DNA from: an uncultured Leptospiraceae bacterium | Lineage (GTDB): Bacteria; Spirochaetota; UBA4802; UB4802 | Length of the DNA: 63,605 bases | NCBI GenBank assembly: GCA_964629365.1 | Contig: CAZVRB010000005.1 | Location: 1-63,605 of the forward strand | Direction: 5' to 3' | In this document: piece after piece, positions 6,031-39,230 of the stretch | Layout: the number at the start of each line of letters is the position of its first letter | Position numbering within the stretch: the stretch's first letter is position 1 | The notes under the pieces: model-generated | The model's input: the letters and a program-made list of their open reading frames with translations, nothing else | The model's database searches: none | What the model was told of the DNA's origin: nothing | Made by a program: the position numbers and the translations under genes

Positions 6031-6600
6031 ATGAAAACACGTTATATTGCATGCATTTCAGTGTTGTTATTGCACCTGCTGGGTATTCCGGGAGGTGCTG
6101 CTGAAGTGAAGTATGAATCTTTAACATTTAAAGATAACGACCTGGTTATACAGTTTTCGATTACGAAATTTCACCGAAATGACCTTGCCGAAGCGGTTAA
6201 GAGGGGAATAGAAGGGAAAGTCATCTATTCTTTCGAGGTTGTAGAAGATTCAACACTCCCATTACTCAAGAAGAAAGTGCTGGTGAGAAGGCGAATAACC
6301 AGAAATGTTAAATATGACTTTTTTAAACAGGCGTTCGTCGTGTATGAGCGTGATATACCGCATTACCTGTATAATAACGATTCTTTTTTAAGTGACCTTT
6401 TTTATTCCCATACATTTGTTCTCAAGGATGTAAAGAGATACCAGGGACGTGATTGCTATGTTCGTTCACGGGTGGAATTTACCTCCATGAAGCTGTATTT
6501 CCCCATAAATTATATATTTGAGTATATTATTGGTCTTTGGGATTTTAACACCGGATGGCAGGATGGCCCCAGCCTGCGGTCAATCAGCGATGAAAGATAA
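6031..6600 (+). CDS. Exported protein, probably DUF4390 family
   Basis: Signal peptide; 'L.EAVKRGI....Y.FEV...RR.TRNVKYD' pattern; sits directly before an NtrY/NtrX-like pair, the usual DUF4390 context. Confidence 0.55.
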   Translation: MKTRYIACISVLLLHLLGIPGGAAEVKYESLTFKDNDLVIQFSITKFHRNDLAEAVKRGIEGKVIYSFEVVEDSTLPLLKKKVLVRRRITRNVKYDFFKQAFVVYERDIPHYLYNNDSFLSDLFYSHTFVLKDVKRYQGRDCYVRSRVEFTSMKLYFPINYIFEYIIGLWDFNTGWQDGPSLRSISDER

Positions 6601-6638
6601 CCGGGGTTACCCGGATTAACGTACCATACAGGAATATA

Positions 6639-8447
6639 ATGACAGAAACCGGACACAACAGAAAAAAACTAATGGGGGGATACCTGAGACGTCCAAAATT
6701 CCAGGACGTGTTGTTTTTGCTTGGTGTGTTCCTCTTTACTGCTGTCATGCTTTTGAGCCTGTATCCACGGTATCAGCAGGATGAAATAGGAAGAAATTTT
6801 TTCCTGTATACGGTAATGCTGGTTCCCCTGATCGCTGCCATCTATTTCCTGGTCATATCATTCAGGTCTCAAATTCGGAAGCAGGACGCCGAAATTACCA
6901 CAAGTATTCGACTGAAAATCGCGGTTGCCCTGATCGTTGTTGCTATCTTGCCATCCATACCCATCATTATTATTTCGAATAACATGATCAATACAACAAT
7001 AAGCGAACTGATAACCGGTAAAACAGCAGTGGCCCTTGAAGAAGCCATTGAAATGTCCCAGGAATCATTGCAGGATGACATTGAGGACATGCGGCGACAG
7101 CTGAAGCTTGTACGGTTTAACATTATAAATGGGGTGTATTCAACAGGATATTACAAGCGCCAGTATGCTGAATTTCTTGGCGAAGGCAACAGCCCCCATT
7201 ACAGTATTCTTGTGGGTTATGTTACATCGTCTTTACCTTTCAGAAAGACTATTTCTTTCGACACGTCTACGGTTGATAAAAAGGAAGTTGAAGACGTTGA
7301 ACAGCTGAAACAATTTCTCAGCGTGGCTGATCTCCTGAATGATGTGCAGGTTGACCGGTTATCCATAAACGGGAAAACCATCATTGTGGCGCACACCCTG
7401 TATGGAAAAAATCTACTGGTAATGTACCAGTACATATCACCCGAGAAAACACAAAGGTTAACACTGTTTGAAAAGACATATGGTAATTATCGTCAACAGG
7501 AATTTCTGAAACCCTATTTCCAGACCGGGGTTGGCATTGCACTGGTAACTATATCGCTGGTAATTATAATGCTTGCTGCAATTATAAGTTTTGTGCTGTC
7601 AAAAAGCATTTCCCGACCTGCGTTTGAGCTTGTGGATGCTGCAAAACAGGTTGCTTCCGGTGATTTCTCTGTGAAATTGTATAGAAGTGAGAAAGACGAG
7701 ATGACCCTTCTGTTTAATTCTTTCAATCGCATGGTCGAACAGCTGGAACATGGACGTAATGTAATGTACCAGACGCAGAAACTACAGGCATGGCGTGATA
7801 TAGCCCGAAAGCTGGTACATGAGATCAAGAACCCGTTAACCCCTATACGTCTTTCTGCTGAGAGGATATATCGCCGCTACAGCGAGGGGCATCAAGACCT
7901 TGATGCCATTGTGAAACAGGGCACCTCTACTATTGTTGAAGAGGTGAATGTATTAATGCGGCTTCTTTCCGAATTTTCCAGGTTTGCCCGTTTACCTGAA
8001 ATTCAGCCTGAATACCAGCCATTGAACGAGATTGTTGAGAATTGTGTACATTTTTTTAAGGGACATGAAAATATTCATTTCATTATTGACCTGGATGATT
8101 CATTGCCTGAACTGTACGTGGACAGGGGGCTTATCCGACAGGCACTGACAAACCTTATACAAAATGCCATAGAGGCCAGTAATGATGAGGGTGATATTGA
8201 AGTGCACACCATGTATATTGAGGATCCAGATAATAAAATGGCGAAGATCGTTATACGTGATTATGGTATTGGAATTGAAGTAGAAGATATCTCAAATATT
8301 TTTGAACCTACTTTCTCAAAAAAAGAAAATGGTACAGGACTGGGGTTGACAATTGTTGAAAAGATTATTATAGAACATGGTGGACGGATTTACTGCCAGT
8401 CGGAATATGGCAAAGGCAGTACATTCACCATTGAGTTGCCTGTATAA
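6639..8447 (+). CDS. NtrY-like membrane sensor histidine kinase (HAMP, HisKA, HATPase)
   Basis: Several TM helices, AWRDIARKLVHEIKNPLTPIRLSAER H-box, NLIQNA N-box, DYGIG and GTGLGL G-boxes. Confidence 0.92.
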   Translation: MTETGHNRKKLMGGYLRRPKFQDVLFLLGVFLFTAVMLLSLYPRYQQDEIGRNFFLYTVMLVPLIAAIYFLVISFRSQIRKQDAEITTSIRLKIAVALIVVAILPSIPIIIISNNMINTTISELITGKTAVALEEAIEMSQESLQDDIEDMRRQLKLVRFNIINGVYSTGYYKRQYAEFLGEGNSPHYSILVGYVTSSLPFRKTISFDTSTVDKKEVEDVEQLKQFLSVADLLNDVQVDRLSINGKTIIVAHTLYGKNLLVMYQYISPEKTQRLTLFEKTYGNYRQQEFLKPYFQTGVGIALVTISLVIIMLAAIISFVLSKSISRPAFELVDAAKQVASGDFSVKLYRSEKDEMTLLFNSFNRMVEQLEHGRNVMYQTQKLQAWRDIARKLVHEIKNPLTPIRLSAERIYRRYSEGHQDLDAIVKQGTSTIVEEVNVLMRLLSEFSRFARLPEIQPEYQPLNEIVENCVHFFKGHENIHFIIDLDDSLPELYVDRGLIRQALTNLIQNAIEASNDEGDIEVHTMYIEDPDNKMAKIVIRDYGIGIEVEDISNIFEPTFSKKENGTGLGLTIVEKIIIEHGGRIYCQSEYGKGSTFTIELPV

Positions 8448-8462
8448 TAAAGGTGGTTATTT

Positions 8463-9818
8463 ATGGCTAAGATACTTGTGGTTGACGATGAAACTCATAT
8501 ACTCTCTACGCTTGGTGCTATCTTGCAGGATGAGGGGCATATTGTGTATACGGCTGAAACGGGAAACCAGGCGCTGCAGTTTATACGGAACAATGAATGC
8601 GAGGTTGTTTTTCTTGACGTATGGCTGCCGGATATTGATGGCCTGGAGATCCTTGCTAATATCCGGCAGACAAAACCGGATACATCAGTTATTATGATTT
8701 CAGGACATGGATCAATTGATATCGCGGTACGCTCAACAAAAATGGGGGCGTATGATTTCCTGGAAAAACCTCCGTCAATGGAAAGGGTGCTCACATCGCT
8801 GAACAATGCCCTGGAGAAGGTTCGGCTGAAACGAGAAAACATTCAATTAAGGCAGAATATAATGATGGAAGATGACATGATAGGCGAGTCGTCTCCCATC
8901 CGGGAAGTGAAGACTGTTATTGAAACAGCTGCATCAACTAATGCCAGGGTATTTATTACAGGCGATAACGGAACAGGAAAAGAACTGGTGGCAAAGGCCA
9001 TTTACAGAAAATCACAGCGTAATGATAAACCATTCATAAAGGTTAATTGCGCGGCAATACCTGACGAGTTGATCGAAAGTGAATTGTTCGGACACGAGAA
9101 GGGTTCTTTTACGGGAGCAGTTTCCAGGAGACTTGGAAAATTCGAGCTTGCCAACCAGGGAACACTTTTTCTTGACGAGGTTTGTGACATGAGCCCAAGC
9201 GCGCAGGCAAAAGTGCTCAGGGTATTGCAGGAACAGGAGTTCGAACGTGTTGGGGGTAATGATGTTATCAGCGTGGATGTACGTGTTATATCGGCTACCA
9301 ATATTGATATAAAAGAAGCGATTGAATCGGGACAGTTCCGCGAGGACCTGTATTACCGGCTGAATGTAATTCCCATTCATGTACCTGCCCTGTCAGATCG
9401 GGTAAAGGATATACCGCTTCTGGTAGATTATTTTCTCAAGAAAAGCACCAATGAACATGGACTTGGAGATAAGGAAATATCCGAAGATGGTATGGATTTT
9501 CTTATGGAATATTCCTGGCCGGGTAATGTTCGGGAGTTGAAGAACGTAATAGAACGGCTCTCAATAATGGTGCAGGGTGAAGTAATTACACTGGATGACA
9601 TCAAAAAGCATATCAGTTCTTACGATTACGAAGATACAATTTCCAGGGATTATTCTAATCTAAAAAAAGCAAGGGAAGAATTTGAAAAGGACTATATTAT
9701 AAATGCCCTGAAGAAGAATAATAAGAATATATCCGAAACCGCCCGGGCCCTGGGCATAGAAAGAACCAATCTTCACAGGAAGATAAACCAGTATCATGTG
9801 GATGTTGACAGGCTTTGA
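8463..9818 (+). CDS. Sigma-54-dependent response regulator (REC-AAA+-Fis HTH), NtrX/NtrC-like
   Basis: VVDDE and FLDVWLP receiver; GDNGTGKELVA Walker A; ESELFGHEKGSFTGA; LFLDEV Walker B; FREDLYYRLNV; WPGNVREL; C-terminal HTH. Confidence 0.95.
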   Translation: MAKILVVDDETHILSTLGAILQDEGHIVYTAETGNQALQFIRNNECEVVFLDVWLPDIDGLEILANIRQTKPDTSVIMISGHGSIDIAVRSTKMGAYDFLEKPPSMERVLTSLNNALEKVRLKRENIQLRQNIMMEDDMIGESSPIREVKTVIETAASTNARVFITGDNGTGKELVAKAIYRKSQRNDKPFIKVNCAAIPDELIESELFGHEKGSFTGAVSRRLGKFELANQGTLFLDEVCDMSPSAQAKVLRVLQEQEFERVGGNDVISVDVRVISATNIDIKEAIESGQFREDLYYRLNVIPIHVPALSDRVKDIPLLVDYFLKKSTNEHGLGDKEISEDGMDFLMEYSWPGNVRELKNVIERLSIMVQGEVITLDDIKKHISSYDYEDTISRDYSNLKKAREEFEKDYIINALKKNNKNISETARALGIERTNLHRKINQYHVDVDRL

Positions 9819-13014: not shown

Positions 13015-15102
13015 CTAATCCATGGAAAGTTCTTTTTCGTACGCTTCCATCGCCACCTTTCTGTTTATCCTGGTATCTTCCCTTGAAGGGTCAAGCTCCA
13101 GTGACTGGGTGAAGAATTGAAGGGATTTCTTGTAATTCTCTTTCTTGTAATGACATTTACCCAGGTTGTGATAAGATTCTGCCATAAGGGTCTCGTCGTT
13201 TGTAGCCTGTAATGCCTGGTGGAAAAGTTCTATGGCGTCATCGTACATATTCTTTTTCATCAGGATGGTGCCCATCGATAAAAGTGCCTGGGGGTCACCG
13301 GGCTTTATAAGCAGCGCTTTTTGTATAGACTGCCGTGCCTGGTCAAGTGATTCGTCGGTTTCCCTGTTGGCAAGGATGACTCCCCTGTTTATATAGGCTT
13401 TTCGGGCAAGGTCATTATCCCCCTGTATCTCAATTACCCTGTTAAAGGCATCAATGGCATAATCCGGCTGGTTTTTCCTGTAGTAGATGGTTCCAAGCTT
13501 AAACTGTGCTTCCTGGATATTGGGCCATCTCCGTAAAATGCGCACATACTCATCCATGGCCTGGTTGTAATGGCCGCCTTCGTAATACATATTGGCAATG
13601 GCAAGCAGGGGGTTTGCGTTGTCCGGGTTAAGGTTTGCCGCCCTGTTCCAGGTTTCAACGGCTTTCTCAGGGATACCCGCATGATCATAGGCGATACCCA
13701 GGTTGTACAGTGCCGTGTCATCTTTTGGGTTGATAGAAAGTGCCTTCTGGTATGAGTCGATGGCATCCCTGAACTGCTGCTGGTCATCTAAAATGTTTCC
13801 CATGTTGAGATAGGCGATCCGGGCGTTCTCTGATGCCGGTTCAAGTGTGGTTATTTTCTTGTAGTAGTCATAAGCCCTGTCAAGCTCACCTTTGCGGTAG
13901 TACAGCTCGGCAATACGGGAGAGTATTCGTACATTGTTTTCCTGCAATGGTTTGAGCCGTTCATATACTTCCAGGCTTTTATCATACTGTTGAAGAGAAG
14001 CGTAGGCTTCCCCCAGGTTTTCCAGCAGATTTTCGTCTTTTACCCCAAGGGCTTCGGCCTTGTGAAAAGACTCAAGTGCCTTTTGAGGATTATCCTGTTT
14101 CAGGTATGTAATTCCAAGATTATAATGATACAGGGGTTCCCCCGGGTCAATCTTTGCTGCCATGGACAGGTACTTTTCGGCAAGCTGGAAGTCTCTTCGT
14201 TTCGTAAAAATGGTTCCAAGCCTTCCGTACGCCATGGATGCGATATTCCCTGACTGGTCAAGGGATCCTGCTTTCTTGAGATAATCTATTGCCGACACCT
14301 CGTCGCCTGACTTCTGTAATGCAAGTGCCATATTATAATGTGCAGAAGCACTGCTATTATCAGTATCTATGGCCCGCCGGTAGGCCTGTACCGCTTTTTC
14401 GTAGCTGCCCATCTCGTAGAGAATGTTCCCTTTTAACAGCAGGTAGTCGAAAGTATCAGGATACTGATCAAGTGCCTCATCTATGGCTCCCATGGCCTTT
14501 GAATAATCTCCCTGGTGCCTGTAGGCAATGGCAAGATTTTTCAAGGCTGAGCCGCTTTCAGGGTCGTATTTTAAGGCGCGGGTATAACTTTCTATGGCTT
14601 TTGTTGTGTTTCCCTGCTCATCATAAATCATACCTGTGTAGGTGAGGGCAATGGCTTTTTCTTTATCAGGGGCGTCCGATTGAATCACGCCACTGAATTC
14701 TGCTATGGCGTCCCTGTAGAATTTCTTTTCATAACTCTGTATACCCTGTCGCAACCGGGGGTTGGAAAATTCTTTACGGGGTGCTTCCCTGGAATCACCT
14801 TTTGAGAGGAATAGATCGTCTTTTGAAACGCTTGATGAAGAAAGAAATGATGGTGGTTCCTTGTATACAAGGGTTACCACTACTAACGCTGCCACGGCTA
14901 CTGCCGCTACTATGGCGGGGATTATCGCGGGATGAAGCTTTTTCTTTCCCGCCCTGGATATGTTAAACCTGTTGGTTTTAACGCCTTCAGGGGTCTCTTG
15001 CTGGTCTTCCTCTGACAGGGAAAACCTATTCCTCTTTATTGCTGTCACCTCCCGCTCTCTCCTCCTTCCCAGGTTGTAACTCTTTTTTCTTGATGGCATC
15101 AA
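13015..15102 (-). CDS. Membrane-anchored tetratricopeptide-repeat protein
   Basis: One N-terminal TM helix (PAIIPAIVAAVAVAALVVVTLVY) followed by many 34-aa TPR units (A.Y.LG...A...Y.KAL..P). The true start may be GTG 15048. Confidence 0.9.
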   Translation of the reverse strand: MMPSRKKSYNLGRRREREVTAIKRNRFSLSEEDQQETPEGVKTNRFNISRAGKKKLHPAIIPAIVAAVAVAALVVVTLVYKEPPSFLSSSSVSKDDLFLSKGDSREAPRKEFSNPRLRQGIQSYEKKFYRDAIAEFSGVIQSDAPDKEKAIALTYTGMIYDEQGNTTKAIESYTRALKYDPESGSALKNLAIAYRHQGDYSKAMGAIDEALDQYPDTFDYLLLKGNILYEMGSYEKAVQAYRRAIDTDNSSASAHYNMALALQKSGDEVSAIDYLKKAGSLDQSGNIASMAYGRLGTIFTKRRDFQLAEKYLSMAAKIDPGEPLYHYNLGITYLKQDNPQKALESFHKAEALGVKDENLLENLGEAYASLQQYDKSLEVYERLKPLQENNVRILSRIAELYYRKGELDRAYDYYKKITTLEPASENARIAYLNMGNILDDQQQFRDAIDSYQKALSINPKDDTALYNLGIAYDHAGIPEKAVETWNRAANLNPDNANPLLAIANMYYEGGHYNQAMDEYVRILRRWPNIQEAQFKLGTIYYRKNQPDYAIDAFNRVIEIQGDNDLARKAYINRGVILANRETDESLDQARQSIQKALLIKPGDPQALLSMGTILMKKNMYDDAIELFHQALQATNDETLMAESYHNLGKCHYKKENYKKSLQFFTQSLELDPSREDTRINRKVAMEAYEKELSMD

Positions 15103-29311: not shown

Positions 29312-30729
29312 ATGAGTAATGAGATGAATGAGTCCGGAACTGAAAACAAGAATACAACCAGGCCCGTCAGCCGGAAAACAGGACAGGGTGGCAAACGTGC
29401 CGGTAATGGCAGTGGTGGAACTACCGGGACAAGCACCCCAAACGGGGATAAAATTATTAAAGAGAACATGAGTGGTAATCGACTGGATCTTGCCGAGTTG
29501 AAGAATAACACTATCAGCGAGTTGATCCAGGTTGCAAAGACAATCGGACTTGACGGGGTATCGGGGCTGAAGAAACAGGATCTCATTTTTGAGATACTGA
29601 AAACCCAGACCGAAAGGAACGGCCTGATATTCTCAAGTGGTGTACTCGAGATACTCAATGATGGATATGGTTTTCTGCGCTCTCCTAATTATAATTACCT
29701 GCCGGGTCCGGATGATATCTACGTGTCTCCATCGCAGATAAGGCTTTTTGGCCTTCGAACAGGTGATACCGTTACCGGTCAGATTCGTCCTCCAAAGGAT
29801 AACGAGAGGTTCTTTGCGCTTTTAAGGGTTGAAGCCGTAAACTTCGAAAATCCTGAAAATCTGCAAAACAGGGTACTCTTTGACAACCTCACCCCGTTGT
29901 ATCCAGAAGAGCGGTTAAACCTGGAGACAATTACCGAAGACGTTGACATGAGGATAGTAAATATAATCACCCCTATCGGACTTGGACAGAGGGCCCTGAT
30001 CGTCGCACCACCAAGAACCGGTAAAACCATCGTATACAGAAGGTGGCGAATGCTATTACTACTAATAATCCGGACATTTACCTCATAGTGCTGCTTATTG
30101 ATGAGCGTCCTGAAGAGGTTACCGACATGGAACGATCGGTACGGGGCGAGGTGGTGTCTTCAACTTTTGATGAACCTGCAACCAGGCATGTTCAGGTGGT
30201 TGAAATGGTGCTGGAAAAAGCCAAAAGGCTGGTTGAACATAAAAAGGACGTGGTAATACTTCTCGACTCAATTACCAGGCTTGCAAGGGCATATAACCAG
30301 GTTGTTCCCACCAGTGGAAAAATTCTTTCAGGTGGTGTTGATTCAAATGCCCTGCATAAACCGAAAAGATTTTTCGGCGCGGCCCGTAACATTGAAGAGG
30401 GTGGAAGTCTTACTATTCTGGCCACGGCACTGATCGATACAGGCAGCAGAATGGACGAGGTAATTTTTGAAGAATTCAAAGGTACCGGTAACTGTGAAAT
30501 ACACCTGGATCGCAAGTTGGCTGACAGAAGAATTTTCCCCGCAATAGATGTCAACAAGTCCGGCACGCGAAAAGAGGAATTATTGCTTGACAAAGAGGAG
30601 CTTAACAAGTTGTGGGTATTACGTAAGGTAATCGCATCAATGAGTTCCACAGAGGCAATGGAGCTTCTTATTGACAAGATGCGGGCCACAAAAAACAACA
30701 GGGCATTTTTTAAAGCCATGAATACATAA
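29312..30729 (+). pseudogene. rho: Transcription termination factor Rho, split by a 1-nt deletion at about 30035 (real lesion or assembly error)
   Basis: ORF 29312-30088 holds the N-terminal half ([24 protein letters not shown]); ORF 30043-30729 holds the rest ([32 protein letters not shown]). Adding one base after GTA (30032-30034) restores ...[14 protein letters not shown]. Confidence 0.93.
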
Positions 30730-32464: not shown

Positions 32465-35400
32465 ATGATAGATCAAGATGTATATGACGTACATAATATT
32501 ATACTTCCAGTAAAGGACAAGGTGGGTGCCAGGAAAAAGGTTGAGAACCTGGTGTCAGAGATGACCCACCCAAATATTGACTGGAAATATATGGTTTCTG
32601 GTCTACGTTCCTACCTGTATGATTATATATACGAACTCGAGGAATACAGCAGCACCGTGTTGCCTGTATTATTTCACTATCTCGCAGAAGCAACCCAGAG
32701 AAAAAGGGGATCCACATTACGTGCGGCAGATACTTTTTTTGACCGGTATATATTTCTCATCCGGAAGGATATATCTGGTGAAACTGCTTTAAGTGAAACC
32801 ACCACGTATTTTGATCACGCGGCAATTGAGTTTTGTGAAATTCTTGAAGAAGACAGCAAAGATGGTTTTTTTCTCGAGGGTGTAAATGAGAGAATACTCA
32901 ACTGCGCAGAACTTTTACTTGAGAGGGATGATGATTACAGTGAAATCGCATACAGGCTTTTAAAACTTCTGATACTACAATATGGAATTTATGTTAGAAA
33001 TGCAGTAGTGATTAAAAATGATGAATTTGAAAAATTGAAGGAAATCTGGCGTCATGATGAAAGTGAGCCGAAAGATGACCGGGATGTTTTACGAAAGCTT
33101 TTATACAGTGTCTCACAAACACAATATGAAGATAGTCTTCAGTCACTTGAAAACCAGGGAGGGAGTAATCCACGAGGGCAACTTGAGTCGTTCAAAAACA
33201 TAATCGATTTTACCCATAACGCGAAAACCTGGGAGAGAATATGTGTTATCAGCAGGGATCTCATCGAAGAGGATGTAATCAAAAACGATAGATACATCCT
33301 GAACCTGTTATCATACCTTGTCGAGAAGTCACAGCAGGGTAATGACTCACAGCTGCAGTTGTTCATGTCACGCACGGTTGCCTCTGTGTGTTCAATACTT
33401 GTCCGAAAGAATAAAACAAATCTTTTACGACAGGTGTTAAACCTTGTGCTGCCACAGCTCTTAAGAGAAATCGAACGGGGTGGAAACTATTATTCCGCCT
33501 TTGCGGCAATATACAACCTGGGTAAAACAATAATTGAGACCGAAAAAGTATACCTGGTTGATCACTTCGTTGACATGCTTGTCAGGTCACGATTCTGCTT
33601 TCCCAGTTTTACCGGTATTGCATCAGACTGGTCGGTGATGGTCAACTCCAGTCACCTTGAGAACATACGTACCTGGATGAGACTGATTGAGTTGAATCCG
33701 CCGCTGATGAAAAAACTTGCTGCCAGCCTGATTGCCAACCTGAAACTCGGGGGTGTCTTTTTAAAGGACACCGATGTTTTCCAGCGTGATGTGTCAAGAC
33801 TTCTTAACAGTGATTATGGTAAAGTCTTTTACCTTATAACTTCTCTGGCCGCCGTGTTTCCCGCGTTCTACCATGATATTGGTGCCACAGGCAACATTCG
33901 TACGTTTACCGAAAGAATTGATACAAATCACCAGATGAATGACATGATCCACTTTATACGCAAGCAGGTGCATGTTGAGTCCAGCAGCCGCACCGTGATA
34001 TTATTGCAGCGGGTCATGGAGTTCTGGATGATCGGTGACAAGACAGTACTTGAAGGCCTTGTTCCCGATGAGGTATACGCCAGCCTTGATCACGTCTACC
34101 GCCTGATAAACCTGGACAATGAGTCAGTGGCCATGCGTATCTATATGGAAATACGTCATGATTTCCCCGAGCTCGTTCATGAAAAATTCTGGGATTTCTT
34201 AAGCAGGGTGGAAAAAAACCGTTTTGTCGAAGCGGTGAAAAACCATGATTTCAAGGACATGGACCCGGATGAGAAAGAAGACGCGTTACGCTGTTTCATC
34301 GAATATTTCAATACAGGGTTTCCCGCCGAGATGACCAAGATGCTGCATCATATAGCTGGAATGTTTGACATAGATACCTCCAGGAAAAAAATATGGCGTT
34401 TCGTATATGAAATTCCTGACGATGATTTTCGACAGCTGTTTGAGAATGTGAGTCGTCTTGACGTCTCGAAGGTAAATGTAGAGAGATTTATTACATTTCT
34501 GCATATATATAGAATGATATTTGATAAGTACAATTTCTCCGACGTACGGGCGGTTGAGAAACTTGAATTGTACGCGGAAGAAGACTTGTTTACTCCCGTG
34601 GATGATCTTTTTAAAGCATTGCGTGGTGATGATGTTTTTTACGCCCTTTCTGTTCTGCTGGAGCAGCAGTATCATCTGAAATGGGATGTCCTTCTTTCTG
34701 ATAAGGTGTTTGAGCCGGTTGACACGATAGAATTTAAACGTCATATCGCTTTCGGAATACCATCCATGTACGGCTCGTACAAGGAGAAAAAGTTCGACAC
34801 GTTGAAAGTCTTTTTTCACTGTAATCTCATACGACAGAGGCTTTTTGAAACACTTATTGAAAAAATAAACATTTATCCCCACGAACCTGTACAATATACG
34901 AACCTGAAAAGGGTATTCAAGTTGTTTATTCAATCATTCGAGGTGGACGGAATCGCCAATTACGAGATGCGCTCTATTGCCAGCCTTCTTGATACACCAA
35001 ACTGTACACTTACCCAGTTCAGGGACATCGTAAAAAGTCTTCTGGATATTCATGGGGAGATATCGGATACATTTAACGATACATTCAAAGTTGTCAGCAA
35101 GGTGGCGGTAAAAAATATCGGTATTGAGAATATTCATGCCGACTTTATTCCCCCCGATCAGCCGGATAATCCCGAAGTGATCATTGATCGTTTTATGAGA
35201 AACCAGATAATGCAGTCACCACTCCTGCAACTGATGGACAACCTGCTGCTTCGGCTGAAGCTGCACCTGGCAAAGGTTACCGGTTATATTGAAGACCAGG
35301 TGGTACTTAACAAGGTGAATCGTCGTACACACAGGGGAAACCTTGTGCAGCCAATCAGGAAAAGCGAATCAGCGGAGAGGATGGACGAACTGTTCGTTCC

Positions 35401-36877
35401 ACTCTGGGAGGCGGGTGCCAAGGCCCAGGGGCTTGTTATAGCCGCAAATATGGATGGCATCAATGTACCCGATGGAATTGTACTGTCAGCTGATCTATAC
35501 AAGCGGGTTAAAGATGGAAATATTGATAATCCCCGTTTTAAACGTAAGCTCATATACATGCTGAAAAAATATATCGATCAGTTCACCGATTACCGTTTCG
35601 GTAATCCCCACAAGCCAATGCTCTTGTCAGTGAGAAGCGGTGCGGTATTCTCCATGCCTGGTGTTATGGATACAATAACTAATGTGGGTATAACCCAGGA
35701 AATTGTTGAAACACTTACTGGATTAGATGAATGGTTTGCCTATGACTGCTACAGAAGGCTTATTCATGATTTTGCCATATCGTTTTTCGATATGGACAGG
35801 TGGGTGTTCGAGGATTTGATATCACAGGCTAAGGATGAAGCGGGTGTTCCGCTAAAGGAGCAATTGTCCGGAAAGCAGATGGAGATTCTTACAAAAAAAT
35901 ACAGGTTTGCCATCAACAGGGAGGGGTATTCAATCCCCAAGGATCCTTACGAACAGCTTTTTTATGCAATTGTTGCCGTGTATAAATCATGGGATTCGCA
36001 GCTTGCCGGTGACTACAGGAAATTTGTCAACATCTCCGACGAATGGGGAACCTCGGTGGTTGTTCAGAGAATGGTATTCGGTAATCTTTCACCGGTATCC
36101 ATTACCGGCGTGGTACACAGTAAGTATATCGGATATGAAAACATAAGTCTTTTCGGAGAGTACAAGACGCGGGCCCAGGGACACGATATTGTAAGCGGTG
36201 TGGCACGGGTGTTTCCCATAAGCGATGAACAGAAACGAAAACATTCACAGTCGGCCCAATACCCGTCTCTTGAGTCTACCTATCCCGGGCATTATAAGAA
36301 ATTATTTGAAGCGGTAAAGCGTATCAGGGACCGTTGGAACAATGATGTTGAGATCGAGTTTACTTTCGAGAATGACGTCCTGTATGTACTACAGGTAAGG
36401 GGTATGACTCACCATATTTTTGAAACGGAAGAACTGGTGGAAACCCCGGAGGAATTAAAAGAATATCTTCTCGGACAGGGACTGGCAGCCTCGGGCGGCG
36501 CGTTATCAGGAAGAGCAGTGTTCTCCCTTGACCGGATTGACACGTTGAGAATGCGCTATCCCCGGGGAAGATTAATATTCATAAGGGCAGAAACAAACCC
36601 GGAGGACGTGGTGGGTTTGCAGAAAACCGATGGTATTTTAACAAGCGTCGGGGGTATGACATCTCACGCCGTATTGCAGATGCGGCGTCTTGAAAAAGCT
36701 GGTGTCAGTGATTTCTCCATCATGAAAACGAATGAACGTGACGGTATGGCAGTTATAAACAGGGAAACCCAGGAGAAAGGGAAAGTGGTAATACGGGAAG
36801 GCGATTTCCTCACTATCGACGGAAACAATGGAAATGTATATCTTGGTTACCATGAAACCAAAAAAAGGCGTGTTTGA
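32465..36877 (+). CDS. 1470-aa PPDK-related protein: about 950-aa unknown N-terminal region, nucleotide-binding domain, phospho-His domain; no PEP/pyruvate barrel
   Basis: PMLLSVRSGAVFSMPGVMDT, WGTSVVVQRMVFGN, AQGHDIVSG, EIEFT, LQVR, and GILTSVGGMTSHA; the protein ends about 70 aa after the His motif. Confidence 0.85.
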   Translation: MIDQDVYDVHNIILPVKDKVGARKKVENLVSEMTHPNIDWKYMVSGLRSYLYDYIYELEEYSSTVLPVLFHYLAEATQRKRGSTLRAADTFFDRYIFLIRKDISGETALSETTTYFDHAAIEFCEILEEDSKDGFFLEGVNERILNCAELLLERDDDYSEIAYRLLKLLILQYGIYVRNAVVIKNDEFEKLKEIWRHDESEPKDDRDVLRKLLYSVSQTQYEDSLQSLENQGGSNPRGQLESFKNIIDFTHNAKTWERICVISRDLIEEDVIKNDRYILNLLSYLVEKSQQGNDSQLQLFMSRTVASVCSILVRKNKTNLLRQVLNLVLPQLLREIERGGNYYSAFAAIYNLGKTIIETEKVYLVDHFVDMLVRSRFCFPSFTGIASDWSVMVNSSHLENIRTWMRLIELNPPLMKKLAASLIANLKLGGVFLKDTDVFQRDVSRLLNSDYGKVFYLITSLAAVFPAFYHDIGATGNIRTFTERIDTNHQMNDMIHFIRKQVHVESSSRTVILLQRVMEFWMIGDKTVLEGLVPDEVYASLDHVYRLINLDNESVAMRIYMEIRHDFPELVHEKFWDFLSRVEKNRFVEAVKNHDFKDMDPDEKEDALRCFIEYFNTGFPAEMTKMLHHIAGMFDIDTSRKKIWRFVYEIPDDDFRQLFENVSRLDVSKVNVERFITFLHIYRMIFDKYNFSDVRAVEKLELYAEEDLFTPVDDLFKALRGDDVFYALSVLLEQQYHLKWDVLLSDKVFEPVDTIEFKRHIAFGIPSMYGSYKEKKFDTLKVFFHCNLIRQRLFETLIEKINIYPHEPVQYTNLKRVFKLFIQSFEVDGIANYEMRSIASLLDTPNCTLTQFRDIVKSLLDIHGEISDTFNDTFKVVSKVAVKNIGIENIHADFIPPDQPDNPEVIIDRFMRNQIMQSPLLQLMDNLLLRLKLHLAKVTGYIEDQVVLNKVNRRTHRGNLVQPIRKSESAERMDELFVPLWEAGAKAQGLVIAANMDGINVPDGIVLSADLYKRVKDGNIDNPRFKRKLIYMLKKYIDQFTDYRFGNPHKPMLLSVRSGAVFSMPGVMDTITNVGITQEIVETLTGLDEWFAYDCYRRLIHDFAISFFDMDRWVFEDLISQAKDEAGVPLKEQLSGKQMEILTKKYRFAINREGYSIPKDPYEQLFYAIVAVYKSWDSQLAGDYRKFVNISDEWGTSVVVQRMVFGNLSPVSITGVVHSKYIGYENISLFGEYKTRAQGHDIVSGVARVFPISDEQKRKHSQSAQYPSLESTYPGHYKKLFEAVKRIRDRWNNDVEIEFTFENDVLYVLQVRGMTHHIFETEELVETPEELKEYLLGQGLAASGGALSGRAVFSLDRIDTLRMRYPRGRLIFIRAETNPEDVVGLQKTDGILTSVGGMTSHAVLQMRRLEKAGVSDFSIMKTNERDGMAVINRETQEKGKVVIREGDFLTIDGNNGNVYLGYHETKKRRV

Positions 36878-36932: not shown

Positions 36933-37122
36933 TCACCACAGAGGCACAGAGGTGGTATCTACAAAGATCAACGCAAAGGCGCGAAGAACGCGAAGAGCGC
37001 AAAGAAAAGAAAAAGATATTATATTTTTTAAATATTTCCTCTTTGCGTTTCTCTGCGCCCTTTGCGCCTTTGCGGTAAAAAAATACTGATCATTTCTCTG
37101 TCTCTCTGTGCCTCTGTGGTGA
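36933..37122. repeat. Double-nested palindromic intergenic element (element B)
   Basis: Outer TCACCACAGAGGCACAGAG / CTCTGTGCCTCTGTGGTGA; inner ACGCAAAG..GCGCAAAG / CTTTGCG..CTTTGCGGT; right-hand portion closely resembles element A. Confidence 0.9.
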
Positions 37123-37146
37123 GATTTATGATTATGGAGGAGATCT

Positions 37147-38301
37147 ATGGCAGCGGTGATATCACCTGATGCACCTGTTGGTGTTGCGGGGATTGGTAGA
37201 ATAGGTAAATTACTTGTATGGTTTCTCTCGGCAAGGAAACAGCATGATGAGATCGTTGTTTCAACAGGGAGAGAAGTTGGTAAATCTCTTGAAGATCTTG
37301 CAATGTACTTCGAATATGATTCTACATATGGGCCGTATTCCAGGTTCATCGGGGGATTCCAAAACCAGCAGGCAGTGGAAATAAAGAATGATACCCTGTA
37401 CATGAACGGGGTGAAGATAACCTGGCTGAACGATCCCGAGTTCAGAACACCGGGGAACATTCCCTGGTCACGTCATGGTGTTGAAGTTGTGTTCGATACT
37501 ACCGGTAATATGACCGACCCTGTGAAAAAAGATGAAAACTCGCTGCGGGGGCATTTGAACCAGGCACGAAAGGTTATACTAACTGCCCCGTTCAAGATAA
37601 AGGATAAAGGTACTCCGATGCCGGATGACGCCATCACACTGGTTGGCGGAGTTAACTTTGAGAAATATGACGGTGCGGTACATAATGTTATATCCAACGC
37701 GTCGTGTACTACCAATTGTTGTGCCCCCCCTATAAAGGCACTGGTAGATCATTTTGGTGAGAAACTGGTTTCCTACTCGTTAACTACTGTACACGCGGCC
37801 ACTAATTCGCAGGCTGTACTTGATACCCTGCCAAAGGCAGGAGACAAAGATACACGGAAACGGCGAAGTATCATCAATACCATTATCCCCACGTCAACCG
37901 GGGCGGCAAACGCGGTGCTGGAGGTGATCCCGGAGATACGTGAACTTGGCATCGGCTCGCAGGCTTCAGCAATCCGGGTGCCCACCAATACAGGCTCAAT
38001 AGTTGTGCTGGATATCTCGGTGCTGGGTGAATTTGATAATGACTATATTCACCAGATTTTCAGTGAGTATTCAAAGAAGTATCCTGATATTCTTAAATAT
38101 TCCAACCAGCAGCTTGTCAGCAGCGATATAGTTGGCAGCGTTTATTCCACCATATACGATGAAAGCTTTACCCATCACCGGACATCAAGAAGAGGTGATG
38201 AGTACTATACGATGGTAGACCTGAACTTCTGGTATGACAATGAATTTGGCTATGTCAACTCCCTTGGAAGACTCTATGATCTTGTTACCGGACGACGATA
38301 A
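37147..38301 (+). CDS. Atypical type I glyceraldehyde-3-phosphate dehydrogenase-family protein
   Basis: GIGRIGK, SNASCTTNC (catalytic Cys), TVHAAT, IIPTSTGAA, RVPT, WYDNEFGY; 384 aa with insertions. Confidence 0.85.
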   Translation: MAAVISPDAPVGVAGIGRIGKLLVWFLSARKQHDEIVVSTGREVGKSLEDLAMYFEYDSTYGPYSRFIGGFQNQQAVEIKNDTLYMNGVKITWLNDPEFRTPGNIPWSRHGVEVVFDTTGNMTDPVKKDENSLRGHLNQARKVILTAPFKIKDKGTPMPDDAITLVGGVNFEKYDGAVHNVISNASCTTNCCAPPIKALVDHFGEKLVSYSLTTVHAATNSQAVLDTLPKAGDKDTRKRRSIINTIIPTSTGAANAVLEVIPEIRELGIGSQASAIRVPTNTGSIVVLDISVLGEFDNDYIHQIFSEYSKKYPDILKYSNQQLVSSDIVGSVYSTIYDESFTHHRTSRRGDEYYTMVDLNFWYDNEFGYVNSLGRLYDLVTGRR

Positions 38302-39230
38302 TGCATTCTCATGATCATTCTCATTCACACGGCCATAATCATTCAGGTGGTGTAAGTACTAATGCCCGTTTTTTCTGGGTAATCCTGTTCAATGTTGTTA
38401 TTACCGTTGCGGAGTATATCGGTGGTATTTTATCAGGAAGTCTTGCCCTGCTATCCGATGCGGGACATAACCTGTCTGATGTCCTTTCCCTGGTGCTGGG
38501 TTATATCGGGCAGAAGGTGTCAGCAAGGGAGCCTGGAAGAAAGTATACCTTTGGCCTGAAGCGTTTTGAAGTGCTGATTGCCCTGGTCAATGCCCTTGGC
38601 CTGCTGTTTATCGGGGGGTATATCGTGGTGGAAGCCTTTCAGAGGTATAACAATCCCGTTGATATCCAGCCGGGAATTATGCTTCCCGTAGCCCTTATCG
38701 GGCTGGCGGGGAATGTGTTTTCCATTATGGTTTTGCAAAGCAGCCGAAAGGACAATCTTAATATGAAGGCGGCATTTCTCCACCTGCTGTATGATGCCAT
38801 ATCTTCCGTAGCAGTTATTATTACCGGGGTGGTGGTGTTATTTACCGGGTGGATGATGCTTGACCTTGTGGTCAGCCTTGTGATTGTATTCATGATAGTG
38901 TGGAGTTCCATGGAGATATTGCGTGATGCCGTCCGCATTTTTATGCAGGGCGTGCCCCGAAATATTGATCCCGAAGAGGTTTACCAGGGTATACTGGATG
39001 TGCCGCAGGTATCAACCGTGCATGGCCTGCATATATGGTCAGTGAGTTCAACGGAGATTTTTCTTTCATGTCACATCTGTGTGGACGCAGAACCTGGAAC
39101 TGTTGATACCGACCAGGTAATTAATGACGTAAACACGGTTCTGGATCGACAGTTTGGGATACAGCACACGACCCTGCAGGTTGAAAATGTCAACCTTTGC
39201 CGGGAAAATGGCGGAACGTGCTGCAGGTGA
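38301..39230 (+). CDS. Cation diffusion facilitator (CzcD/ZitB-like)
   Basis: His-rich N-terminus, SLALLSDAGHNLSD, TFGLKRFE, LHLLYDA, HGLHIW, HTTLQVE. Confidence 0.93.
   Translation: MHSHDHSHSHGHNHSGGVSTNARFFWVILFNVVITVAEYIGGILSGSLALLSDAGHNLSDVLSLVLGYIGQKVSAREPGRKYTFGLKRFEVLIALVNALGLLFIGGYIVVEAFQRYNNPVDIQPGIMLPVALIGLAGNVFSIMVLQSSRKDNLNMKAAFLHLLYDAISSVAVIITGVVVLFTGWMMLDLVVSLVIVFMIVWSSMEILRDAVRIFMQGVPRNIDPEEVYQGILDVPQVSTVHGLHIWSVSSTEIFLSCHICVDAEPGTVDTDQVINDVNTVLDRQFGIQHTTLQVENVNLCRENGGTCCR

Follow-up and report, generated by a model that had tools for sequence, protein, structure and literature searches.

The DNA considered here, referred to as the window, is a stretch of 63,605 nucleotides from an uncultured Leptospiraceae bacterium (contig CAZVRB010000005.1 of assembly GCA_964629365.1), in which a gene for a glyceraldehyde-3-phosphate dehydrogenase (GAPDH) of unusual length follows a gene for a protein related to pyruvate, phosphate dikinase (PPDK). 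The GAPDH gene occupies positions 37147 to 38301 of the forward strand and encodes a protein of 384 amino acids (P0001), the dikinase-partnered GAPDH paralogue of this genome. This open reading frame (ORF) is a genuine gene; no comparable long ORF competes with it, the other strand included, and a Shine-Dalgarno-like GGAGGAG (37137 to 37143, forward strand) can be read 5' of its ATG. The dikinase gene (32465 to 36877) lies on the same strand and ends 269 bp 5' of the GAPDH gene. Its product, of 1470 amino acids, consists of a helical N-domain of about 950 amino acids followed by an ATP-grasp and a phospho-His domain (Pfam PPDK_N at residues 1032 to 1326, PEP-utilizers at 1371 to 1456), and Pfam finds no phosphoenolpyruvate (PEP)/pyruvate barrel in it.

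By its domains and fold, P0001 is a type I GAPDH-family protein, yet one that scores below the equivalog level. Both Pfam domains are recognized above their cut-offs (Gp_dh_N with 53 bits, Gp_dh_C with 93 bits), and the best NCBIfam model is that of GAPDH-I (TIGR01534), which P0001 matches with 294.5 bits, under the curated equivalog cut-off of 367.2. It falls further below the models for Epd (TIGR01532, 134 bits against a cut-off of 530) and for the ArsJ-associated GAPDH (NF033735, 172.8 bits against 450). An AlphaFold 2 model made with 96 homologues has the GAPDH fold at a pLDDT of 95.3, and the top Foldseek matches of this model are all GAPDHs, with a TM score (target) of about 0.9 to solved GAPDH structures. 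The protein had been estimated from the sequence to be about 50 residues longer than standard GapA, which is borne out by a measured excess of 48 residues over the genome's own canonical Gap (336 amino acids), spread in the alignment across six insertions.

The tie between the long GAPDH and the dikinase is apparent from either gene. Starting from the GAPDH, contigs were available for eight homologues of 39-75% identity, and in seven of these contexts, P0085 being the exception, a gene of 1364-1470 amino acids with PPDK_N and PEP-utilizers domains adjoins it. The dikinase in these contexts either precedes the GAPDH in tandem, in some cases so closely that its stop codon overlaps the start of the GAPDH, or is convergent with it, and all other neighbours vary. 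Starting from the dikinase, an alignment of its N-domain was scanned over one genome per species, matching at least 600 species; 80 loci were kept, of which 65 had enough flanking DNA to be informative. The long GAPDH stands directly beyond the dikinase in 64 of these 65 loci, which come from named species genomes, and L049 is the one true exception. When the neighbouring ORFs were clustered, the dikinase and the long GAPDH emerged as the sole conserved pair of the neighbourhood.

Presence and absence of the two genes follow the same pattern. An evenly drawn set of 201 Spirochaetota genomes contained 18 that have the two genes together and 183 that lack both; every one of the 18 carriers comes from the order to which the window's genome belongs and has the two on one contig and one strand with the dikinase upstream, as in the window. 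Among 201 Thermodesulfobacteriota genomes, 51 have both (adjacent in 43), five the GAPDH only, two dikinase fragments only, and 143 neither; in two of the five GAPDH-only genomes the gene is cut by a contig end. Because the eight remaining genomes with both genes hold them unlinked, the tie can be argued to be functional rather than purely positional. The pairwise distances of 57 dikinases and of their partner GAPDHs correlate with r = 0.96 (0.93 within the delta-type group alone), and odd cross-phylum groupings are identical for the two proteins; since related genomes are not independent, these correlations and the co-occurrence counts are descriptive. The original prediction had suggested that the two genes might form a two-enzyme module and had proposed to look for co-occurrence with the 1470-residue family. 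Conserved adjacency, co-occurrence (extending to 51 of the 56 Thermodesulfobacteriota genomes with a long GAPDH) and correlated divergence back this module strongly.

Copies of the pair show some irregularities. The genome G315 carries two complete dikinase-GAPDH pairs (on C41 and C139), and G312 has two long-GAPDH copies with equal scores (C1:505494-506717 and C1:1778710-1779933), only one of them beside a dikinase. A dikinase with five in-frame stops lies next to an intact GAPDH in G275 (C1:684571-685566) and may be a pseudogene.

Homologues of P0001 fall into three layers. The nearest are proteins of 382-385 amino acids with 66-75% identity, a tight group from Spirochaetota metagenome-assembled genomes; the next are proteins of 415-445 amino acids with 39-47% identity from Thermodesulfobacteriota, Bacteroidales, Nitrospirales and others; and ordinary GAPDHs of 330-340 amino acids follow below about 160 bits. 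A maximum-likelihood tree (LG+C20) was built from 98 rows, comprising 36 dikinase-linked proteins, 21 library representatives and 41 canonical GAPDHs. In this tree the 57 long GAPDHs are split from the 41 canonical proteins by a branch about 1.4 substitutions per site long (SH-aLRT support 100), and the canonical side holds the genome's own Gap, the canonical Gaps of the same loci, and both GapA and Epd of E. coli. As a consequence of this fully supported split, the long GAPDH is a deep separate subfamily that is neither GapA nor Epd, which answers, for these two, the phylogenetic comparison that had been proposed for it. Very long proteins also occur among the library representatives (P0122, P0141 and P0151), in which several GAPDH units are joined to PGK, TIM, FBPase_3 or HEAT repeats. 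They were considered as possible GAPDH-dikinase fusions and rejected, being multi-GAPDH/PGK/TIM/FBPase or HEAT fusions with no dikinase domains. Most likely they come from eukaryotes or from gene models that were run together, and they have nothing to do with the dikinase pairing.

The catalytic apparatus of GAPDH is retained in P0001. As had been noted from the sequence, the catalytic Cys and His motifs are intact: Cys187 (codon at 37705-37707, forward strand), the equivalent of Cys149, lies in the motif SNASCTTNC, and His216 (codon at 37792-37794), the equivalent of His176, lies in TVHAAT. S186 and T188 (the Ser148 and Thr150 equivalents) are conserved as well, as are T219, R240, T251-G252, R277 and N365-E366-Y369, which correspond to T179, R197, T208-G209, R231 and N313-E314-Y317, and the WYDNE motif is kept. 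The columns of 62 dikinase-linked homologues were counted against those of 49 canonical GAPDHs. The equivalents of Cys149, His176, Thr179, Arg231, Thr208-Gly209 and Asn313 are invariant in the 62 linked homologues, and in the alignment the residues that hold the C3 phosphate, the inorganic phosphate and the nicotinamide are unaltered in the linked clade. Two positions are changed, with the Arg195 equivalent becoming Lys238 in 61 of 62 and the Asp181 equivalent becoming Ser or Thr in the linked clade. The reading DTTG in place of E(S/C)TG, which had been thought atypical, is found to be ordinary, as Asp occupies this place in 10 of the 49 canonical GAPDHs.

The regions that set the linked clade apart lie elsewhere and include sites associated with cofactor choice. 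The adenosine-ribose loop is modified at codons S39-G45 (37261-37281, forward strand), with inserted G41-R42 and G45. The adenosine-binding ND position had been read as STGR, and this holds: strand beta-2 is followed by S39-T40-G41-R42-E43, which by alignment is a three-residue insertion (x-G-R) in the ribose-binding loop. G41, R42 and G45 are invariant in 62/62 linked homologues. The insertion in the Asp32 loop is placed differently by HMMER and by MAFFT; of the residues that could take the place of Asp32 in the linked set, the one at position 40 is neutral and the one at position 43 is Glu or Asp in 39 of 62. The S-loop (codons T227-G232, 37825-37842, forward strand) carries a four-residue insertion. 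By column counts its Pro188 equivalent has basic residues on both sides: Arg or Lys stands at position 227 in 43 of 62 linked homologues, and K230 is Lys or Arg in 57 of 62.

Further signatures are a nine-residue, clade-specific insertion after the SAP motif (F149-A162, 37591-37632, forward strand; F149, K150 and P159 invariant, D161 in 58/62), an added helix after YDSTYG, the sequence R134-G135-H136, and the motif H-x-R-T at H343-H344-R345-T346 (38173-38184, forward strand), which starts an insertion of 7 to 30 residues before WYDNE and is conserved at H in 62/62, at R in 61/62 and at T in 61/62. P0001 bears all of these signatures, namely the x-G-R insertion, R-G-H, the insertion with F-K and P..D, and H-x-R-T. 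The last motif was considered as a marker of dikinase linkage and had to be given up, since P0085 and P0136 have it without an adjacent dikinase; it is missing from P0124, P0125, P0140 and P0144.

In GAPDHs, discrimination between NAD and NADP takes place at positions 32/34 and 187-189, as mutagenesis and natural NADP enzymes indicate, and the latter enzymes have Lys or Arg at 187-189 (PMC9145139). The invariant Gly-Arg insertion at the Asp32 loop, together with the basic S-loop residues, suggests NADP(H) use by the long GAPDHs. Acceptance of NADP(H) is plausible because both the ribose loop and the S-loop are altered at these published specificity sites. Of the altered cofactor that had been predicted, it is the changed pocket that finds support, at the level of sequence, in the Gly-Arg invariantly inserted in the Asp32 loop and in the basic residues on either side of the equivalent of Pro188; the cofactor itself is suggested by analogy.

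Whereas the absence of adjacent pgk and tpi genes had been pointed out correctly for this locus, where the neighbouring genes encode the dikinase, a CDF transporter and a protein like DprA, it does not hold for the family. Among Thermodesulfobacteriota, seven loci (from Syntrophobacteraceae, Smithella and others) have the pair in one contiguous block with pgk (phosphoglycerate kinase, PGK) and tpi, often accompanied by a canonical gap. Desulfoferrobacter suflitae shows the order dikinase-longGAPDH-gap-pgk-tpi, and L048 the order dikinase-longGAPDH-pgk-tpi; G301, in which the two partners are separated, has an operon longGAPDH-pgk-tpi, with its canonical gap elsewhere. A change of substrate had been named as an alternative to one of cofactor. 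It finds no support, since every residue that contacts either phosphate of glyceraldehyde 3-phosphate (G3P) and 1,3-bisphosphoglycerate (1,3-BPG) is retained and relatives stand in operons with pgk, tpi and gap: an ordinary triose-phosphate substrate is likelier, with G3P and 1,3-BPG the likeliest pair. A canonical gap of 332-338 amino acids was also seen within a few kb of the pair in nine loci, both GAPDH types flanking or following the dikinase (L010 at 13770-14768; L020 at 8699-9697; L042, L047, L060 and L061 at about 14.6-15.8 kb; L052, L056 and L063).

The genome that contains the window keeps the classical enzymes, as the original prediction had advised checking. Its canonical Gap (336 amino acids, 467 bits) is encoded on contig C47, and its pgk is on a contig other than the window's. 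A canonical gap scored above the cut-off in all 11 genomes checked (this genome, five with the pair adjacent and five with the pair unlinked), and one PGK was found in each of the six among them that were checked for PGK. Replacement of PGK or of the canonical Gap by the pair is ruled out by these counts, and because the checked genomes keep both gap and pgk, the long GAPDH and its dikinase are a module added to the classical enzymes and no substitute for them. The genome (G000) also has, at C6:38206-40899 and C19:3120-5663, a true PPDK (1422 bits) and a full-length PPDK-like gene below the cut-off (717 bits), as well as four PFK-family genes and a GlpX FBPase.

The partner dikinase resembles PPDK (EC 2.7.9.1, TIGR01828) in its ATP-grasp and swivelling phospho-His domains, in the PPDK_N and PEP-utilizers matches and in the conserved TSHAA His motif (His1401). 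It differs in that the TIM barrel is absent, in its unrelated helical N-domain and in a changed domain order. Its ATP-grasp scores 310 bits with the PPDK model (cut-off 843) versus 42 bits with that of PEP synthase, and because it is nearer to PPDK, a reversible half-reaction between ATP + Pi and AMP + PPi is suggested. The N-domain that stands in the barrel's place has many invariant Arg, Lys, His and Asp residues, consistent with a new acceptor site.

Taken together, this evidence strongly supports a real, unusual GAPDH subfamily in partnership with a dikinase, as judged from sequence comparison. As to what the partners do, P0001 may be a phosphorylating GAPDH isoenzyme that interconverts G3P and 1,3-BPG and forms a unit with the barrel-less dikinase at the node of 3-phosphoglycerate (3-PG) and 1,3-BPG, a reading that we consider plausible, with doubt slightly the heavier. 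The phospho-His arm of the dikinase would be charged by PPDK-type chemistry (ATP + Pi yielding AMP + PPi) and would phosphorylate the carboxylate of 3-PG, or run in reverse, so that the labile acyl phosphate 1,3-BPG is made or consumed. The partner GAPDH would then reduce 1,3-BPG to G3P, or form it from G3P, probably with NADP(H), and the pair would constitute an AMP/PPi-linked route parallel to PGK and GapA at the 3-PG/G3P node. The GAPDH substrate, the use of NADP(H), the dikinase substrate and the direction of flux in this scheme are as we infer them. A GAPDH that is dedicated to, and co-diverges with, the dikinase would be best explained if the labile 1,3-BPG were the shared metabolite.

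By textbook standard free energies, the reaction 3-PG + ATP + Pi -> 1,3-BPG + AMP + PPi amounts to about +4 kJ/mol, and the PGK reaction in the same direction to about +19 kJ/mol. Because the dikinase reaction would lie near equilibrium, a gluconeogenic push at low energy charge and a glycolytic recovery of ATP from AMP and PPi are both possible. The window's own genome is likewise compatible with either direction of flux, with genes of the PFK family as well as a GlpX FBPase and a true PPDK. Such a route could serve gluconeogenesis in energy-limited anaerobes that oxidize fatty acids or acetate, or could recover extra ATP from PPi. The carriers are largely oxidizers of fatty acids, aromatic compounds or acetate, and an acyl-CoA dehydrogenase gene lies downstream of the pair in the window. 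In its most specific form, a "3-phosphoglycerate, phosphate dikinase" that hands 1,3-BPG to its own NADP(H)-accepting GAPDH in a PGK-independent, PPi-linked branch, the proposal is tentative, and we are clearly more inclined to doubt it than to accept it.

Several observations weigh against the reading of the pair as a unit at the 3-PG/1,3-BPG node. The route would be redundant with known enzymes, since the canonical gap (11/11) and PGK (6/6) are kept, and pgk stands directly beside the pair in some genomes, which is unexpected for a simple bypass of PGK. No 3-PG site is recognizable in the N-domain of the dikinase, despite its own invariant polar residues. E43 is acidic in P0001 and could be the Asp32 equivalent or a ribose ligand, compatible with the use of NAD. 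In addition, long GAPDHs extend beyond the pairing with a dikinase: P0085, P0124, P0125, P0136, P0140 and P0144 have no nearby dikinase, the large neighbour of P0085 (991 amino acids) being the alpha subunit of DNA polymerase III, and the 1-Mb genome of P0136 (G006), in which a canonical gap and pgk are present, gave no match to the dikinase N-domain. Because long GAPDHs exist without a dikinase, the features of the clade are not all adaptations to it, and the ribose-loop insertion x-G-R, like most of the other insertions, predates the partnership or is independent of it.

The linkage data themselves show coupling and do not identify the shared metabolite, so that the GAPDH might act on ordinary G3P while the dikinase works one step away, on glyceraldehyde, dihydroxyacetone or glycerate, or phosphorylates or regulates the GAPDH, in a relation of supply or control. 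The frequent position of pgk right beside the pair would fit a PGK that still performs the 1,3-BPG step, and phospho-His relays phosphorylate small alcohols elsewhere, as in the PTS-type dihydroxyacetone kinase. This account is nevertheless unlikely in our estimation, as a stable metabolite such as G3P needs no dedicated, co-diverging GAPDH when a canonical Gap is present in every checked genome, and we know of no kinase-target motif in GAPDH. More doubtful still is a different phospho-aldehyde/acyl-phosphate pair, such as erythrose 4-phosphate and 4-phosphoerythronyl phosphate or a C3-C5 phospho-acid, which would make of the two proteins a new pathway of carboxylate activation and reduction. 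It would account for the depth and separateness of a clade that stays under the GAPDH-I cut-off, for the clade-specific invariants R134, F149, P159, H343, R345 and T346, and for the substitutions close to the substrate site (Ser/Thr for Asp181, Lys for Arg195), and the pairing of a kinase with an acyl-phosphate reductase is an established logic. It is at odds with the retention of the GAPDH catalytic set and of both phosphate sites and with the recurrent operons of pgk, tpi and canonical gap, which indicate triose phosphates; Epd, moreover, is far from P0001 both by score (134 versus 530 bits) and in the tree.

A merely redundant or lineage-specific GAPDH isoenzyme, which owes its place beside the dikinase to operon hitch-hiking, would be in keeping with those long-GAPDH relatives that stand alone and with the unrelated CDF gene that adjoins P0001. 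It is highly improbable, given that in several phyla the two genes stay adjacent even where their orientation and all the other neighbours differ, that presence and absence agree in 201 + 201 genomes, including the eight in which both genes are present and unlinked, and that the divergence of the two proteins is correlated.

Literature searches found no publication on this pair, on a phosphoglycerate dikinase or on clusters of PPDK-like and GAPDH genes, and the nearest known systems each share some of its features. GapA (EC 1.2.1.12; E. coli GapA, G. stearothermophilus 1gd1, Aquifex 2ep7) has the same two-domain fold (TM 0.9) at 30-35% identity, and shares the GxGRIG start, the Cys in SCTTN, His176, Thr179, Arg231, Thr208-Gly209 and WYDNE. 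The long GAPDH departs from it by about 48 extra residues, the x-G-R insertion, the replacements of Arg195 and Asp181, the longer S-loop and H-x-R-T, and in being a second copy that is inherited with the dikinase. The NADP(H)-dependent, gluconeogenic GapB (EC 1.2.1.13/59; B. subtilis, and P. putida GapB, PMC12663938) is likewise a second GAPDH beside a glycolytic GapA, with the position 32 loop and the S-loop at 187-189 shifted to basic or neutral residues, and an anabolic direction is plausible for both. GapB differs in its normal length, in its place inside the canonical radiation and in having no dikinase partner, and NADP is for the long GAPDH a prediction from its residues.

The ArsJ-associated GAPDH (NF033735) is, like the long GAPDH, a paralogue that relies on a dedicated neighbour to handle its acyl-anhydride product. 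There the partner is a major facilitator superfamily (MFS) exporter of 1-arseno-3-phosphoglycerate, in contrast to the cytoplasmic dikinase found here, and no ars genes are nearby. In the systems of aspartokinase and aspartate-semialdehyde dehydrogenase, ArgB and ArgC, and ProB and ProA, a carboxylate is converted to an acyl phosphate, which is then reduced, in most cases with NADPH, by a Cys enzyme that belongs to the GAPDH superfamily or is related to it. Unlike the dikinase, aspartokinase, ArgB and ProB form ADP and act on amino-acid carboxylates, and there is no sequence relationship.

The lower trunk of glycolysis is held to be fully known, and the pair would mean either a missing activity or a new control at the 3-PG/1,3-BPG/G3P node. 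The species that carry the dikinase, at least 600 and mostly anaerobic, range from sulfate reducers, syntrophs and Geobacter to Bacteroidales, Nitrospirales, Calditrichales and spirochaetes resembling Leptospira. The question matters for the way in which anaerobes that are short of energy drive gluconeogenesis or make use of pyrophosphate. Metabolic models now label the two genes plainly as "gap" and "ppdK". If the proposed activity were true, many anaerobes would possess a PPi-linked branch that stands to the classical enzymes as PPDK does to pyruvate kinase.

The spacer between the two genes is long here because an element of about 190 bp sits in it (36933-37122, no strand assigned). Read from the sequence, it consists of nested inverted repeats, resembling a miniature inverted-repeat transposable element, with outer arms ATCACCACAGAGGCACAGAGG / CCTCTGTGCCTCTGTGGTGAGAT and inner GC-rich repeats of the type CGCAAAGG. 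In relatives the spacer is tens of bases or the genes overlap (35 bp in L007, an overlap in L003). On the other side, a ZitB-like CDF cation-efflux gene (38301-39230, forward strand) follows at once, its ATG sharing one base, the last, with the stop codon of the GAPDH, and is probably co-transcribed with the long GAPDH in this genome. The CDF transporter was considered as the partner of the pair and dismissed, since it is absent from the conserved neighbourhood. In L101 a CDF gene (6330-7229) and an unlinked long GAPDH are some 0.8 kb apart, which may be a coincidence. Elsewhere in the window, rho is split into two overlapping ORFs, one with the N-terminal and RNA-binding part (29312-30088) and one with the ATPase (30043-30729), each matching half of TIGR00767, the result of either a frameshift or an assembly error.

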